DNA of 64,000 bases from Myxococcota bacterium (lineage in GTDB: Bacteria; Myxococcota_A; UBA796; CAJQPC01), in the NCBI GenBank assembly GCA_036229005.1, contig JAZAMN010000004.1:115902-179901 (forward strand). The letters are read 5' to 3'. The position numbers and the translations under genes are program-made. Numbering within the stretch: position 1 is the first letter of the stretch; each line of letters starts with the position of its first letter. Under the pieces are notes generated by a model. The model made no database searches. It saw only the letters and a program-made list of their open reading frames with translations, and was not told the DNA's origin. Below are positions 28,870 to 36,149 of this stretch, one piece after another.

Positions 28870-29949
28870 ATGGACCGACTCCCCCAGCACATGGGGGTGC
28901 TGCAGATCGAACTCACCGATCTCTGCAACCTGAGCTGCAGCATGTGTGCCCCTCACCACGAGGGGTGGGCCACCGTGCACGGGATCCCGAAAGGCAAGAT
29001 GGACTTCGCCGTCTACGAGGCGATCGTGGGGCGTCTGGCCGCCGAGGACTGTCGCTTCGACCACATCATCTTCCAGTGGCTGGGGGATCCCTCGCTGCAC
29101 AGCCGGCTGGAGGACATGCTGGCCCTGGCCCAGGAGCGGCTGGGGGACCGGGTGGGCTACCTGCGGGTGGACACCAACGCCATCACCCTGACGCCCGCCC
29201 GGATGGATCGGCTGGTGGAGCTCTACGCCCGGCACCCCCAGGTCCCGCTGCTGCTGGTGTTCACCCTGGACGCGGCGACGCCGGAGACCTACCGCCGCGT
29301 GAAGGGGCAGGATGCGCTGGAGCGGGTGCGCCGCAACGTCCGCCGCCTCCTGATGCAGCGCGCCCGCCTGGACCTTGAGGACGTGCGCCTGAACGTGGAG
29401 CTGCAGTTCGTCCTGCAGGAGGGGAACGCCCATGAGCTGGGGCAGTTCGTCCGCTACTGGGAGCGCACGCTGGCTTGCTACGGGGGCAAGGGGCACAGCG
29501 ATCTGATGATCAAGCGCCTGTCGGTGGGGGCAGGGGGTGCGGGGCAGCAGGCCGCCGACGCGCTCTATCAGCGCCGGGTGGCCGAAGAGGGGCTCCGAGC
29601 CTTCCGCTCCGACCACCTGGAGCTCAAGCTCTGGGAGTCCTCCCCCTGGGAGAAGGCGGAGCCGGGCCCCCGGCAGGCCTGTCCGGGGCTCTGGCTCACG
29701 CCGGTGATCCGCCACGACGGGCACCTGTTGATGTGCTGCGCCGACCTGTCCTCGCAGATGGACCTGGGGCCGGTACACGAGTCCGGGTTCCGCGCTCTCT
29801 GGGAAGGTGAGCAAGCCGATGGATACCGGACAGCGCACCTCCAAGGCCGCTTCGAGGAGCTTGAGGCCTGCCGCGACTGTGGCGGAATTCAGTGGTATGA
29901 CCTGCCCATGACCCTTGTGGACGCGACCCTGGAGCGGACGGGAGCCTGA
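28870..29949 (+). CDS. Radical SAM/SPASM(twitch) protein
   Basis: CNLSCSMC; C-terminal CPGLW...MCC..CRDC. Confidence 0.9.
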   Translation: MDRLPQHMGVLQIELTDLCNLSCSMCAPHHEGWATVHGIPKGKMDFAVYEAIVGRLAAEDCRFDHIIFQWLGDPSLHSRLEDMLALAQERLGDRVGYLRVDTNAITLTPARMDRLVELYARHPQVPLLLVFTLDAATPETYRRVKGQDALERVRRNVRRLLMQRARLDLEDVRLNVELQFVLQEGNAHELGQFVRYWERTLACYGGKGHSDLMIKRLSVGAGGAGQQAADALYQRRVAEEGLRAFRSDHLELKLWESSPWEKAEPGPRQACPGLWLTPVIRHDGHLLMCCADLSSQMDLGPVHESGFRALWEGEQADGYRTAHLQGRFEELEACRDCGGIQWYDLPMTLVDATLERTGA

Positions 29950-29950
29950 G

Positions 29951-31444
29951 TTGCCTTGGCTGACCCTGGGAGTCCTGGCCGCCTGCACGGACCCTGTCGC
30001 CGGGGAGTCCGGGGACAGCGCGCTCGACCCGAGGCTCGAACTGGGCCCGGTTCAGCGCTGTGAGCAGCCGGGGGAGCTCGCCTATGCCGAGGTCGGACAG
30101 GCGCAGGGATTGGTGCCGCCGGGTGTGGTGCCCGAGCACATGGAGGACGCCGGCACGCTGCTGTTGACCGACCTGGACGGGGATGGGCACCCGGAGCTGC
30201 TGCACGGCTGGTTCGACGAGTTCCTGCTTGTGCATGGGCTGGGCGGGCCGGAGCCATGGAGCGAGCGGCTGCCCTTTGGAGTGGCCGGGCTGGTGGTGCT
30301 GCCGGAGACCGGACACCTGGCCTTCCTCTCGGAGGGGCTGTTCATGGTGGATCCCGGTTCGTGGACCGTGAAGGGGCTCGTGGAGGGCGAGATCGACGGG
30401 CGGCTGCGCAGCCCCTCGGTGGGCGACTTCGATGGGGACGGGGTGCCGGACCTCTTTGTCCCCCGGGGTCACCCCGAGGACCCGGCGCAGCGCACCGATC
30501 TGGTGTTGTGGGGGCGCGGCGGCGATGCGTTCGTGCTGGAGGAGCTGCCTGTGAGCCTGAGCGGAGAGGCCTTCGACAGCCAGGCGCTGGACTGGAACGG
30601 TGACGGCCTGCTGGACGTCTACGTGGACAACGATCGCGGGGAGACCCGGGGGCACAACCAGCTCTTTGTGGGCGGCGCGCACGGTCTGGAGGCGGCGACC
30701 GACCAGTGCGGCGCCTGCAACCTGGCGCACAGCGGGATGGGGGCCCACGCGGGGGACGTGAACGGCGACGGCGCCCCCGATCTGCTGTTGGCGGGCACGC
30801 GCTACGCCGAGCTGCTGCTCAGCACCGGGCCTGGCGCTCCGCTCGTGCAGCAGCCCTCCAGTGTGCTGCCGGACCTGGGCTCCGCCGGCATGTATTGGGG
30901 GGGCGTCATCACCGACGTGGACAACGATGGGCGCCCCGACCTCTGGCTGGCCACGGGCCCGCAGAGCTACCCCGAGTTGGGGACCGGGGTGGTGGTCGGC
31001 GACCCTACGCCCCCGGTCCTGGCCCTCCAACAGGCCGACGGTGGGTTCGTGGACGCGGCCGCCAGCTTGGGGCTCGCCGAGCCGGGGGTGTGGCGCGCCA
31101 CCCTCGCCTGGGACCTGAACGGGGACGGGGTGCTCGACCTGCTGCTGGGCTCAGCCACCGAGCGGCCGCTGCTGTTCATGAGTCAGGGCTGCACGGAGAA
31201 CGCCTGGCTCCAGGTCGACGGCCCCGAGGGCACCCGGGTCGAGGTGGAGACCGCGGCCGGCGTACAGGTGGGCTGGGTGAGCGCCGAGCAGGGCTATGAG
31301 TCCCGCGCTCCGGCGCGGCTGCACCTGGGCCTGGGCCCGCACGAGGAGATCCTCTCTCTGCGCGTGCGGGTCCCTGGAGAGGCCCAGAGCCACAGCGCCG
31401 GCCCCCTGGAGGCCCGGCGCGTGATCACGGTGCAGACGGACTGA
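29951..31444 (+). CDS. FG-GAP/CRTAC1-like repeat lipoprotein with ASPIC/UnbV-like C-terminus
   Basis: Repeated D.DGDG.PDL motifs; LHLGLG C-terminal motif; LAAC lipobox. Confidence 0.85.
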   Translation: MPWLTLGVLAACTDPVAGESGDSALDPRLELGPVQRCEQPGELAYAEVGQAQGLVPPGVVPEHMEDAGTLLLTDLDGDGHPELLHGWFDEFLLVHGLGGPEPWSERLPFGVAGLVVLPETGHLAFLSEGLFMVDPGSWTVKGLVEGEIDGRLRSPSVGDFDGDGVPDLFVPRGHPEDPAQRTDLVLWGRGGDAFVLEELPVSLSGEAFDSQALDWNGDGLLDVYVDNDRGETRGHNQLFVGGAHGLEAATDQCGACNLAHSGMGAHAGDVNGDGAPDLLLAGTRYAELLLSTGPGAPLVQQPSSVLPDLGSAGMYWGGVITDVDNDGRPDLWLATGPQSYPELGTGVVVGDPTPPVLALQQADGGFVDAAASLGLAEPGVWRATLAWDLNGDGVLDLLLGSATERPLLFMSQGCTENAWLQVDGPEGTRVEVETAAGVQVGWVSAEQGYESRAPARLHLGLGPHEEILSLRVRVPGEAQSHSAGPLEARRVITVQTD

Positions 31445-31448
31445 GCGT

Positions 31449-31763
31449 TGTATGACCTCCACCAGGGCCAGGAACGTCTCCTGACCCTCACCATGGAGGT
31501 CTCCAGGAGAGTCGGGCCGAGCGAGCGCAAGCGAGCGAGGCCCTCCTCGACCGATGGCGTACCCTGCTGGGCATGGTCATCAGGAGAGGGTCGCCGCGAC
31601 TGAGCGAGGGCGTTGTGCCCGTTTCTGAGATTGGCGCCTTCGACCTGGCGATGAGAGCTCGGACGGTATCTCGGGGCCCGCGACGTGCGCGGTGTCCCCG
31701 CATGCACAAGTGCGGGTGCTCGCCAGTCGTCGAGGCTCCTGGAGGCTTCCTTCGGAGGACGTG
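31449..31763 (+). ncRNA. IS110 bridge RNA region (target-binding loop ~31592-31636, donor-binding loop ~31641-31735)
   Basis: Guides GACTGAGCG and TTCTGAGAT match the flanks; ACGGTATCT and ACAAG match the element ends; each guide pair surrounds an internal hairpin and has a closing stem. Confidence 0.88.
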
Positions 31764-32939
31764 ATGAAGCACTACGCCGGCATCGATGTGGGCAAGGGCA
31801 AGCACTGGCTTGCCATCGTCGACGAGGACGACAAGGTCGTCTTCAAGTCCAAGGGCTTCCCGGAGACGCGGGAGGGCTTTGAAGCCATGAACGAGGTGCT
31901 GGAGCAGCATTCAATTGCGCTCCTCGCGCTCGAGGCCACCGGTCACTACTGGAAGAACCTCTTCGTCGAGCTGGTGGCCGTCGCGGGCTTGCAGGTCGCC
32001 TTGGTCAACCCTCGGCGCACGGCGGCCTTCGCCAAGGAGGAGCAGACACGCGTCAAGACGGACGCGGCGGACGCACTCGCCATCGCCCGCTTCTGCCGTC
32101 AGAAGCGTCCTGAGGCGACCGGCCTCGGTGACCTGGCCCTGGAGACCCTGCGCGAGCTCGTCCGCCTGCGGGATCGACTCGTCCAGGACCGCAGCGACCG
32201 TCTCCGGCAGCTCCATCGCGCCATGGATCTCGCCTTCCCGGAGTTCCCCAAGCTGGTCACCCTCGACAGCCAGCTCGCCTGGACGCTGCTGCAGAAGTGG
32301 CCGACTGCGCTCGCCTTCCAAAAGGCAAAGCGCGCAAGGATCTCCGCGACCGTCTACGACGGCCGGCACCACGTCGGGCGCGAGCGCGCCGAGGCCATCC
32401 AGAGAGCGGCCAAGCGCACCGTCGGCGCCCACCAGGGCGAGGTCTGGGCGATGCAGATCCGCATGTATGCCGAAGACCTGGAGCTCTTCACCAAGCGCAT
32501 CCGGCAGCTGGATCAGGACATCGAGACCTTCCTGGATGGCCACGACGTGGGCAAGCGCATCACCACAATTCCAGGTCTGGGGCCAAACAGCGCAGCCCGC
32601 ATCCTGGCGGCCGCTGACCCGACGCAGTTCCGCAGCGCGAAAGCCTTCACCGCCTACTTCGGCGTCACGCCCTATACCCGCAAGAGCGGCTCTTCCAAGA
32701 CCTCCGACCGGGCCGCCATCTCACGCATCGGCAACGCTGAGCTCCGACGCAAGCTCTGGATGCCGACCCTGACCGCCATTCAGAAGAACCCCGCCATCAA
32801 GCCCTTCTACGAGCGGCTCCGGGAGCGGGGCAAGCCACCCAAGGTCGCCTTGGTGGCCTCCATGCGGAAGCTGCTCACCGTCGTCTACGCAGTCGCGAAC
32901 CAGGGTCATGGTTTCGTCGTGAGATCAGAAACCGGTTGA
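31764..32939 (+). CDS. IS110 family recombinase/transposase (391 aa)
   Basis: GIDVGK, LEATGHYW, KTDAADA (DEDD RuvC-like); IPGLG, GVTP...SGSS, SRIGNAELR, MRKL. Confidence 0.97.
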   Translation: MKHYAGIDVGKGKHWLAIVDEDDKVVFKSKGFPETREGFEAMNEVLEQHSIALLALEATGHYWKNLFVELVAVAGLQVALVNPRRTAAFAKEEQTRVKTDAADALAIARFCRQKRPEATGLGDLALETLRELVRLRDRLVQDRSDRLRQLHRAMDLAFPEFPKLVTLDSQLAWTLLQKWPTALAFQKAKRARISATVYDGRHHVGRERAEAIQRAAKRTVGAHQGEVWAMQIRMYAEDLELFTKRIRQLDQDIETFLDGHDVGKRITTIPGLGPNSAARILAAADPTQFRSAKAFTAYFGVTPYTRKSGSSKTSDRAAISRIGNAELRRKLWMPTLTAIQKNPAIKPFYERLRERGKPPKVALVASMRKLLTVVYAVANQGHGFVVRSETG

Positions 32940-32956
32940 CTGGACCAGCCGGTATC

Positions 32957-34546
32957 TCAGAATCGCCCGAAGTCCAGGTCGTCCAGGCGGATGACCGAGT
33001 TGCTCCCGTTGTCACCGACCGCGCGCTTCATGGGGACCTCCGCCTCTTCGCCGCCGCCCGCGGCCAGGTAGGCCTTGATGGCGTTGAGCATCTCCGGGTC
33101 CAGGGTGCTGGGGTCGAAGCCCTGGCCCTGCACCTCGGGGGGCTTGAGCGTGAAGCGCTTGAGGGTCTGCCGCAGGCGGTCGGTCTGTGCGGACAACTGC
33201 TCGCTCGAGGCCGCCCGCTCCTCGGCGCTCGCGGTGTTCCGCTGGGTCACGCCGTCCACCTGGCGCAGGCCGGCCTCGATCTGGGCGATGCCCTGGGCCT
33301 GCTCGTTCGACGCCACGCTGATCTCCGCGACCAGCTCGCCGACCTTGCCGACGCTCTCGACGATCTCGGCCAGCGCCTTTGCGGTCTCCCGGGCGATCGA
33401 GGTGCCCTGGTCCACGCGCTTGATGCTGCCCTCGATCATCTCGGTGGTCTCCCGGGCAGCCTTGGCGCTGCGAGCGGCCAGGTTCCGGACCTCCTCGGCG
33501 ACCACCGCGAAGCCCTTGCCGTGCACACCGGCGCGCGCGGCCTCGACCGCGGCGTTCAGGGCCAGCAGGTTGGTCTGGAAGGCGATCTCGTCGATGACCT
33601 TGATGATCTTGGAGATGTTGTTGCTGGCCTCTTCGATGGAGCCCATCGCGCTGACCATGGCGTTCATGCGCTCGTCGCCGGTCGAGGCCAGATCGCCCGC
33701 CAGCGAAGCCAGCTCATTGGCCATGCTCGCGTTGCCGGCGCTCTGCTTGGTCTGCTGCGCGATCTCGGAGACCGACGCGGTGATCTCCTCCACCGCGGCC
33801 GCCTGCTGCGCTGCGCCATCGGAGAGCGCCACGGAGCTGGCCGCCACCTCCATCGCGCCGCCAGCGATCTCGTCCACCGCGACGGAGACCTGGCTGAGGA
33901 TCTCGTTCAGTCCGTCCAGGCTCCCGTTCAGCCCGTCGGCCAGCGCCGCGTGGTCTCCCTCGTACTCCTGGTCGATGTACGCCGTCAGGTCCCCCTCGGC
34001 GACGCGGCCCAGCTTCTCGCGCAGGTCGTGGATGGGCTGGATGCAGGTGTCCAGGATCTGGTTCACCTGGTCCATCATCACGCGCGCTTCGCCCTCCAGG
34101 ACCGAGCTGTCCCCGCGCACGGAGAGGTCGCCGACCGAAGCCGCGTGGTGCACCCGCTCCAACTGGCCCTTGAAGCCCGACAGGAGGTTCAGATCCTCCC
34201 ACTCGACCACGTTCCCGGCGTAGTTGCCGTCGGCGTCCCAGACCATCTGCACGTGCAGCCCAAAGCGCAGCTCACCCACCGGGACGGCCGCCTTCCAGGG
34301 CATTTGCGAGGCGTCGGAGAGGATGGCCTGCTGCTTGTGGCTCTGCTTGTGGAACACCGCCACCGGCTTGCCGACGATGTCCTCCGGGGAGAAGTCCGGG
34401 AACATGCTCCGCAGGTAGTCCGCGTAGCGATGGAACATCTCCAGCATCGCGGGCGAGGCGTAGGTGATCACCTGATCGGCGTCGCAGATGAGCATGCAGC
34501 TACTGGAGTGCTCCAGAGCGGCCAAGTAAGGGCTGGGGGATGCCAC
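32957..34546 (-). CDS. Soluble PAS-domain methyl-accepting chemotaxis protein (Aer2-like)
   Basis: [23 protein letters not shown] with FHK and VEW; no TM; C-terminal DFGRF; GTG start after AGGAGG. Confidence 0.92.
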
Positions 34547-34604
34547 GGGACCTCCTGTGCAAGGGAACAACGGCACCGGAATCCCAAGGTTGAGCCAAAG
34601 TCTT

Positions 34605-36149
34605 TCAGCCTGATCCCCGTCCTCCGCGGATGCTCCGCGCGAGCGCATCCAGCCGCGCCCCAAGTCCACTGGCCCGCAGCTCGGCCTCCTGGGCCCGCAG
34701 CTCCGCCTCCGCCAGCAGCCCCCGAAGCTGATCCCGATCACGGTCCCCCGCGCGCAGCTCCGCGTTCTTCTTGGCCAGCTCCGCCCGCGCCTCGGCCAGC
34801 AGCCGCTCCAGGCCCTGGACCTCCCTCGCTAGCCCCTGCCCCTGCGCACCCATCACCGCGATGGCCTCGCGCTTGAACCCAGCCACCTCCTCCAGTCCGC
34901 GGGCCATGTCCGCGATCGTGGTGGTCAGCTCAGCCACTTGCGCGCTCAGCCCCTCGACCTCCTGGCGCTTCTGGACCACCTCGCGCTCCGCCCGACCCTG
35001 GGCCGCCGCCGCTGCCTCCAGCTTTCCGAGGAGGGATCCCACCTGTACGGACAGCTCGGCTGCACCTCCCAGAGCCGGAGCCCCCTTCTCCCGGGGCCTG
35101 GGATCCTGGGCCCAAGCGAGGAGACCCGCAGCCACCCGGTCCCAGGCCATCTCCCCGGCCAGCGCCCGCGCCGCCTCCGAGCGCGCCTGCAGCTCCGGAC
35201 CGCCCTCCAGCACCGCGTCCAGCGCGTCCTCGAGCGAGCCACCCACCCAGCCTGCGCCCGCCGCGTCCACCCGAGCGCTCAGGGGGTGGAAGTCGCCTGT
35301 GATCAGCGGAAGACCGCACCCCAGGCTGTCCACGTGCCGGAAGGCCAGCGCCAGCTCCCGCTCAAAGTGCGGCTGCATCCAGTCCAGCGCCGCCCAGCCC
35401 TGGCTGTAGCGCGCCAGGAGCTGGTGGTAGGGCAGGCGGGCGTCCTCGATGACCAGGCGCTTGCTCTGGGGCAGCCGGGGGGCGTCCACCCCGTGCCCCA
35501 CGCCGGGCTGACCGCCCAGCACCACGATCCGCCCCTTGCGCCGCTTCTCCAGGTGCGCCACGGCGCGCTCCAGCCCGGGGAGGGGGTCGATCCACGGCCA
35601 GGCCACCCCGCCCATCAGGATCTCGGGGTGTCGGCTGCGCTTGCCGGGGGCCACCTGCGGCGCGGCCAGAGGGACCACCGCACCCAGCGCCGGGTCCATG
35701 CCGGCGAGCACCATCAAGCCCAGGTTGAACCAGCGCTGTCGCTCGTTGGAGAAGAGCACGAAGTCGGCCGCGTGTAGGGCCGTCAGGGTGTGCTCAGCGG
35801 CCTTGGCGGTCGCCCCCTGAAAGTGCGCCTCCAGCAGCCGCGGCGCGTAGAGATCCACGCACAGCGGCGCGATCCCGGCGAGCGCGTGGGCCTCCTCGGG
35901 CTGCACGCACAGGATGGCCCCCGGCTGGATCGCCTGCGCCATGCGCCGGAGCTGGTCGGCGTCCTGGAAGCCCGGCGGGTCCCCCGGCAGCGTGTCCTGC
36001 GCCCGGGTCAGCGGGATCACCTGATGCCCGGCGGCCTCCAGGGCCCGCTTGTGGTTCCCCGCCCGGATCGCCCCGCCGGAGCCCGGTCGCGTGGAGGCCG
36101 GGCCCTGCTCGGCGGGCAGGACGCCATGAAACACCATCAGGATGCGCAT
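34605..36149 (-). CDS. GT-B glycosyltransferase-like protein with C-terminal coiled coil
   Basis: MRILMV start, [24 protein letters not shown]; ~140-aa heptad tail. Confidence 0.75.

Follow-up and report, generated by a model that had tools for sequence, protein, structure and literature searches.

An IS110-group element from a Myxococcota genome with bridge RNA guides that appear to read two convergent stop codons

Introduction

How do the RNA guides of mobile elements come to direct them to harmless sites? The addresses known for IS110 elements are repeats, attC sites and other elements, and this wider question is raised by an IS110-group element located in a 64,000-nt stretch of DNA from a Myxococcota bacterium (the window), where it lies between the ends of two convergent genes.

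IS621 of Escherichia coli has a 177-nt bridge RNA (PMC11208160, PMC11208158). A promoter is formed across its joined ends, and pairing of the core on both strands is strongly preferred (PMC11208160). The bridge RNA contains the handshake bases A81/U82 and a discontiguous right donor guide, A157-U158/C162-G165 (PMC11208158). Among the left-core mutants listed for the IS621 screen, a few showed some activity, and GA is absent from those listed. Excision is weak (PMC13626964); it may proceed by copying just one strand, with the donor half being sufficient (10.64898/2026.08.31.748434). For seekRNA elements, targets with functional meaning have been described, namely the catalytic codon of IS3, attC and REP (10.1101/2024.04.26.591405).

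Results and Discussion

The recombinase

The protein encoded by the element matches PF01548 (N-terminal DEDD RuvC-like domain) with 120 bits, PF02371 (C-terminal Tnp domain) with 77.8 bits and NF033542 with 248 bits (cut-off 140). Its residues D8, E57, D100 and D103 align with D11, E60, D102 and D105 of IS621, and the catalytic serine is S308 within an RKSG motif. The nearest solved structure by sequence is that of ISCro4 (PDB 9t56, E 6.2e-37), and the IS621 structure (PDB 8wt6) matches with E 2.4e-34. ISCro4, compared here by sequence, is the best solved relative, yet a distant one in which about 75 residues inserted in the middle of the window protein are missing. This insertion (residues about 162-238), which is also missing from IS621, is common to the group of roughly 390-residue proteins. 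With 315 nt before the gene and 16 nt after the recombinase stop codon, the element has the layout of the IS110 group, unlike that of IS1111. Judged from its sequence, the element at 31449-32955 is an intact IS110-group member of the IS621 type (DEDD plus Ser308), and there is nothing unusual about its recombinase and RNA scaffold, which belong to a large and well-known family.

Among 21 other genomes of the family no close copy was found, except for one relative with 52% identity, and a protein-based scan of genome contigs returned nothing. The three pattern matches in viral contigs all lack a recombinase.

Copies and empty sites

Four left and four right ends of the element are present in the source genome (G000, 70% GC), which, judging from its gene content, its nearest named relative and the runs in which it occurs, is probably that of a marine myxobacterium. 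Three of the four copies are broken at contig ends, and their left and right ends were counted separately. The core is CT at seven of the eight junctions and GT at one, the left junction in the window (Table 1). The breaks at contig ends raise the question of whether a collapsed repeat joined unrelated flanks during assembly, in which case neither the site nor its match to the guides would be real, and several relatives are internally deleted, possibly by misassembly. For the window site this is refuted by contigs of two other studies, which join the window flanks directly and skip exactly 1509 bases, corresponding to the element plus one core; in addition, the depth of the element in run X1 (28.8 versus about 7 for the flanks) matches four copies. 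We thus consider an assembly artefact highly improbable. The empty site in run X7 reads ACTGAGC-GT-CAGAA (skip from 31447 to 32957). The window site is real and polymorphic, and its original core is GT.

The preliminary description had proposed that the guides of the element match its insertion site. The flanks of the other genomic copies agree with this, as all copies are located at guide-like sites and none at an unrelated one. The dominant strain of run X6 has an empty site with TAA instead of TGA at 32957-32959, which would mismatch the right guide, and in this run the element is present at about a tenth of the host depth.

Table 1. Positions of the element, its functional parts and the neighbouring genes in the window.
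Feature	Position	Strand	Remarks
Host gene (FG-GAP repeats, ASPIC/UnbV)	29915..31444	+	TGA stop 31442-31444 matched by left guide
Left target ACTGAGC	31440..31446	+	host stop at its positions 3-5
Left core GT	31447..31448	+	inherited from target; CT in the other three copies
IS110 element	31449..32955	+	1507 bp between cores
Candidate -10 box TATGAC	31451..31456	+	weak final base
CCTCC	31456..31460	+	predicted pairing with ribosome-binding site in read-through transcripts; 3 of 21 folded elements
5' extension	31494..31570	+	long-range helix arm, GCGAGC hairpin, alternative partner for 3' strand of donor loop
Bridge RNA core (target loop, donor loop, closing helix)	31580..31754	+	RNA model match 113.6 bits
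Left target guide ACTGAGC and non-canonical core-binding GA	31599..31607	+	register with L022, L040
Target-loop inner hairpin GGGC-GTTGT-GCCC	31608..31620	+	
Right target guide TTCTGAG	31623..31629	+	matches core CT and CAGAA, i.e. bottom-strand TGA stop
Target-loop handshake guide AT	31630..31631	+	pairs with donor positions 6-7; like A81/U82 of IS621
Left donor guide ACGGTATCT	31663..31671	+	8/9 to right end plus core
Right donor guide, discontiguous AT-(GC)-ACAAG	31702..31710	+	matches core and TGTAT of left end
Long-range helix 3' arm and Shine-Dalgarno GGAGG (31754-31758)	31736..31758	+	
IS110 recombinase	31764..32939	+	391 aa; D8/E57/D100/D103 and S308; middle about 75 aa longer than in IS621
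-35 box TTGACT	32936..32941	+	overlaps recombinase stop codon
Left donor CCGGTAT	32949..32955	+	right end of element
Right core CT and right target CAGAA	32956..32962	+	
Host methyl-accepting chemotaxis gene	32957..34741	-	TGA stop 32957-32959 overlaps core, matched by right guide

The bridge RNA and its guides

A scan with a donor-loop pattern gave 36 loci, 24 of which have a recombinase nearby; the 12 loci lacking one were left out. The set of 22 elements used for comparison includes the window element, L002 and L022, with the duplicate of L002 counted once and five identical copies (L033) counted once. A covariance model was built from 18 relatives, leaving out the window element and its two closest relatives. 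It recovered the region 31580-31754 with E 1.2e-20, the next best match in the window having E 0.31, and confirmed the bridge RNA of the preliminary description by its relatives. In the 18 relatives the two-loop structure is 97.1% paired, and 9 of 36 pairs have changed on both sides. This level of pairing was reached by none of 500 shuffles and dropped to 39-51% in slid registers; as the sequences are related, these figures do not amount to a probability. No Rfam family came near its gathering score (two chance matches).

All 15 motifs quoted in the preliminary description are present where it had placed them, but the register of several guides had to be revised. The left guide matches the left flank as described, although not in the register given before: G31598 is a linker, the guide comprises 31599-31605 and the bases GA facing the core are located at 31606-31607. 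The earlier match of 9/9 letters holds here because the window site has a GT core, whereas the other three left junctions have CT. Similarly, the right guide agrees with its junction in 9/9 letters, but as a reading of the target it consists of five target bases, two core bases and the handshake AT. The match of the left donor guide to the right end (8/9) was borne out. For the right donor guide, ACAAG is indeed complementary to the core and the left end but represents only part of the guide, which is the discontiguous ATGCACAAG (31702-31710) with a 7/7 match to the joined ends. The handshake AT is present in 18 of the 22 elements and pairs with donor positions 6-7 at the element's own end, while the TG at the corresponding place of the donor loop pairs with neither DNA.

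In IS621 the core dinucleotide is paired by all four guides. This is not so here, where the left target guide has GA at the core positions; L022 has CT, L040 GC and L080 TT at these positions. Of the features tested, the unpaired left core is the one in which the element deviates from IS621; for the IS110 family as such it is no exception.

We also asked how far guides and flanks match beyond chance. In the 22 elements, the left guides match their own flanks at 114 of 154 letters (maximum 102 in 20000 shuffled pairings) and the last three letters of the right guides at 51 of 63 (maximum 42 in 20000). For the window element by itself, 59 of 3000 shuffled left ends contained, at any position, both a 9-mer shared with the left flank and a 7-mer matching the right flank. 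Such short matches between end and flank are only modestly beyond chance, and the case therefore rests on the relatives and the other copies.

Overall, protein families, catalytic residues, the RNA model, the other copies and the empty-site contigs support the intact IS110 recombinase, the IS621-type bridge RNA and the 315-nt left end of the preliminary description, which had set the guides slightly out of register and missed the convergent stop codons. Like IS621, the element has RuvC-like DEDD and Tnp-serine domains, a long left end, a CT core, two internal loops, a discontiguous right donor guide and an AU handshake; the candidate split promoter would be a further similarity. It differs from IS621 in the size of the recombinase (391 versus 326 aa) and of the left end (315 versus 191 bp), in its natural 7-nt right guide and in the left guide core, which is GA and not CT.

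Pairs of stop codons as target in the source genome

Both target guides contain CTGAG, that is C-TGA-G, and thus a TGA stop on each strand. Gene ends were assigned with our own codon-model caller (5360 genes) and GC profiles. At 8 of 8 junctions of the four copies in the source genome, a called gene pointing at the element ends in TGA, the left stop being located 2-3 bases before the core and the right one overlapping it. Three further sites, known from loose ends, are occupied in runs X4 and X7 (other marine populations) and empty in the source genome, where each of them (C6:101035, C64:74508, C51:30127) lies between two TGA stops; the gap at C51:30127 is shorter there than in the strain of X4. 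All seven sites known for the element are stop pairs. Both stop codons are intact at every junction seen, and gaps of 3 and of 4 bases both occur. Of 12 ORFs that flank the sites outside the window, 11 match a Pfam family, although two of these matches do not reach the curated cut-off; both neighbours in the window have a match as well.

The source genome contains 855 convergent gene pairs, 57 of which have a gap of 3-4 bases. A strict guide motif, CTGAG-N1-2-CTCAGA, which was defined after the sites had been seen, has 7 empty sites in 6.4 Mb, and 6 of these are located between two stops. TGA accounts for 4179 of 5360 stop codons and is preceded by C in 2604 and followed by G in 2315 of the 4179 cases; C-TGA-G is the commonest stop context of this genome. 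The strict motif is mostly found at stop pairs because TGA dominates among the stops and usually has these neighbours. Codon bias that purges the motif from genes was also considered and found unsupported, with 16 occurrences inside genes compared to 20-28 in shuffled sequences; the enrichment reflects the stop context. For the looser motif CTGA-N2-3-[CG]T-CAGA, no more than 7 of the 29 empty sites are flanked by stops on both sides, and owing to this lower specificity selection against insertions in genes probably also acts.

Such selection might account for the whole pattern if the element inserted at any loosely guide-like site, if only insertions between genes survived and if the stops within the guides represented a frozen early site. 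Consistent with this, 17 of the 29 empty sites with a loose match are not in contact with any stop codon, and occupation is known for none of these. Moreover, six out of six stop-to-stop sites would be drawn from 33 loose sites, 11 of which are of this kind, with a probability of 4e-4, which indicates that something beyond CTGA acts, and the C64 site, the one occupied in X4, is the only stop-to-stop site among 66 sites with two mismatches. However, the guides themselves spell stops, and the strict motif lies at stop pairs in 6 of 7 cases with no need for selection. It is likely, taking these points jointly and judging from the DNA sequence, that the element is an intact IS110-group member with a target loop directed at the place where two convergent genes meet, and that it was recently mobile and moves like IS621.

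A second lineage with stop codons at its ends

In a genome of the same class but another order (G133), a relative is present that is 54-56% identical over the part available and occurs in two variants. Their left guides read AG-TAG-GT in the first and GC-TGA-CG in the second variant. All seven left ends scored follow a stop by 1-3 bases, and this stop, TAG in four cases and TGA in one for the first variant and TGA in both cases for the second, ends a gene-like frame of 131-505 codons. L094, which does not have the exact left-end pattern, and L168, which is not an element end, were left out of this scoring. As a control, the 11-mer used here was located in six other genomes, and none of its 32 chance matches comes after a stop of this kind. 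Six of seven right ends likewise end a gene-like frame, the search pattern having fixed CA but not the gene end. Only 6 of 13 flanking ORFs have a Pfam match, and 2 of 5 empty guide matches are clearly located between two stops. Another relative, L021 (78% identical to the window element), is also located between two TGA codons. On the evidence of sequence, stop-pair targeting is well supported in two genomes.

The exchange of TAG and TGA at the same three positions of the left guide in an element of such low identity also speaks against survival of harmless insertions as the sole cause. Selection on outcomes and selection on guides can co-occur, so that the former lowers our confidence in guide-encoded targeting only in part; on its own, we consider it an unlikely explanation.

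A different objection concerns the right-hand stop, which might be a by-product of a structurally fixed UGAG, with only the left guide being free and the stop-pair habit half accidental. In 21 aligned elements, the right guide has an invariant GAG preceded by a T that is at least 90% conserved, and the right target starts with CA in 20 of 21, regardless of whether the site lies at the end of a gene, in a repeat or in tRNA-like DNA. Against this, the more distant L043 has the right guide CGCGTAG and the target ACGTG, which indicates that these positions can change, and all nine non-core positions of IS621 are programmable (PMC11208160). Even with a fixed right guide, the left guide had to gain a stop. 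We regard the by-product explanation as doubtful, though it deserves somewhat more weight than survival alone.

A farther-reaching reading, which we hold with moderate confidence, is that a branch of the IS110 group evolved guides reading the stop signal of the host. One guide per strand would find back-to-back stops, the guide could change from TGA to TAG or back and yet remain on a stop codon, and the lack of pairing at the left core would admit several gap lengths. The machine is known and the targeting logic apparently new. That the whole group aims at stop codons is unsupported: TGAG in the right guide is nearly invariant group-wide, and no more than 8 of 20 relatives have a gene with Pfam support that terminates at this TGA. 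Among the close relatives, L022 is inserted in a repeat, and the left flank of L040 has no stop although its guide contains TAG; the pattern is also absent from the 18 left ends in G090. In a phylogenetic tree L080 groups with L022 and L040 (100/99), a placement compatible with one or two origins of the stop-pair habit.

Proposed mechanism

Based on IS621, the two ends would join at the CT core to form a circle, in which the -35 box of the right end meets the -10 box of the left end, and the junction promoter would drive expression of the bridge RNA and the recombinase. The candidate promoter consists of TTGACT and TATGAC, with a weak final base, at a distance of 18 nt; relatives have TTGACA and TATGTT at 17 nt. 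No circle joint was listed for the contigs of four runs, a blank that carries no weight as evidence. The donor loop is complementary to CCGGTAT-CT-TGTAT. The target loop matches ACTGAGC on the first strand and CT-CAGAA on the second, and C-TGA-G is thereby read two times in back-to-back orientation. Recombination at the core would then keep both stop codons and land in the gap of 3-4 bases, with neither gene broken. As in IS621, the recombinase would bind the RNA, and the handshake bases would assist strand exchange. Since GA of the left guide does not pair with the CT core, the left duplex may be uncoupled from the position of the cut, so that it could slip by one base and accept gaps of either 3 or 4 bases. 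Counter-selection of insertions within genes probably makes this pattern sharper.

The long left end and read-through transcription

The left end comprises 315 nt in the window element and 310-311 nt in L022 and L040, compared to 223-242 nt in the other relatives measured. The 5' extension is common to L022, L040 and, in part, L080. Two structures had been suggested for this region in the preliminary description. The long-range helix (31501/31744) is predicted with pair probabilities of 0.99-1.0, and the pairing of the extension with 31736-31750 shows some compensatory changes within the three sequences available. The 5' hairpin GACCTCCA/TGGAGGTC is not predicted (0.00-0.02), as formation of the long-range helix excludes it. 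When the full left end was folded as a single sequence, the donor loop was absent and the extension captured its 3' strand; the donor loop formed only without the 5' extension. This capture may represent a switch or a folding artefact of the single-sequence prediction.

Transcription of one of the two host genes always runs into the left end, as the space is too small for a terminator. In the read-through transcript the ribosome-binding site is predicted to be unpaired with a probability of 0.01-0.02, compared to 0.46 otherwise. Hiding of the ribosome-binding site was considered as a group-wide property and rejected, as it is predicted here but in only 3 of 21 elements.

Comparison with other elements and possible significance

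The target of the window element is a pair of host stop codons, whereas that of IS621 is a REP repeat. The REP-targeting IS110/IS1111 elements ISPpu9, ISPpu10, ISPa11 and ISRm19 likewise reach harmless sites, often between convergent genes (PMC1525189; 10.64898/2026.03.19.712850). They use the host repeat as address, and ISPpu10 also a target stem-loop (10.64898/2026.03.19.712850), whereas here the site, with a gap of 3-4 bases, contains no repeat, and it is the pair of stop codons that serves as address. ISEc21 and other seekRNA elements share RNA guides that match both target strands (10.1101/2024.04.26.591405). In the accessible text of the same study no stop-codon target is described, and "stop codon" occurs only with respect to the transposase gene.

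The guides described here appear to use a general feature of genomes as address, namely the meeting point of two gene ends, and 14 guide bases suffice to encode it. Elements of the IS900 group insert between the ribosome-binding site and the start codon; this group of the IS110 family is likewise aimed at a translation signal, which is the start of one gene there and two stops here. If our reading is correct, it describes a safe-harbour address for which neither a repeat nor a tRNA or att site is required, and bridge recombination with an unpaired core and a slipping register would have a natural example. With the stop address apparently kept through a change between TGA and TAG in the second lineage, guide evolution under host selection becomes directly testable. 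For engineering, the element offers a naturally occurring orthologue in which the right guide has 7 bases and the left guide is unpaired at the core. These properties are relevant to the programming of the core and to slippage by one base as a cause of off-target insertions.

No report of guides reading stop codons was found in the literature covered, which excludes most subscription journals and bioRxiv supplements. The term "stop codon" is absent from the main text of PMC11208160 and 10.64898/2026.08.14.744561. A word search of the supplement of PMC11208160 revealed targets of the same type, at least 58 of GCTCAGTC and at least one of CTGAGGCTCAG, and no comment on them in the text searched.

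Observations on further relatives

L080, L088, L090, L091 and L021 are internally deleted mini-copies that kept both ends or have different breakpoints. The deletions in the G133 copies and in L021 may represent natural non-autonomous elements or misassemblies. In genome G090 (L106-L126), 18 left ends of two element variants were found, 11 of them in one repeat that ends with CCGATGA directly before the core.

In L028 and L047, both junctions are located on an overlap of start and stop codon of the opposite strand (GTGA, ATGA). Read backwards, the left end provides an ATG five codons upstream and in frame with the downstream host frame, and by its position this ATG may restore translation of a gene otherwise beheaded. 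The upstream gene is supported by Pfam in L028 only.

Five identical copies in one Myxococcota chromosome (L033, L035, L036, L056, L059) are located in DNA that resembles the anticodon and T arms of a tRNA on the opposite strand, at sites where ARAGORN called no tRNA; their guides are CCCGACC-CA and ACCTGAG. The proteobacterial members L026, L029, L031, L032, L045, L052 and L053 are located in or beside a shared palindromic repeat.

The source genome contains a second IS110 element at the ends of contigs C15, C27, C29, C48 and C50, with five right ends, the donor GACGGTTG-CT and the right target CACTC; only the right end on C50 closes a gene-like frame. A third, distant IS110-type gene (L072, G000:C52:176238-177404; 23% identity) has a long upstream end, is unmatched by the RNA model and is flanked by short tandem repeats.
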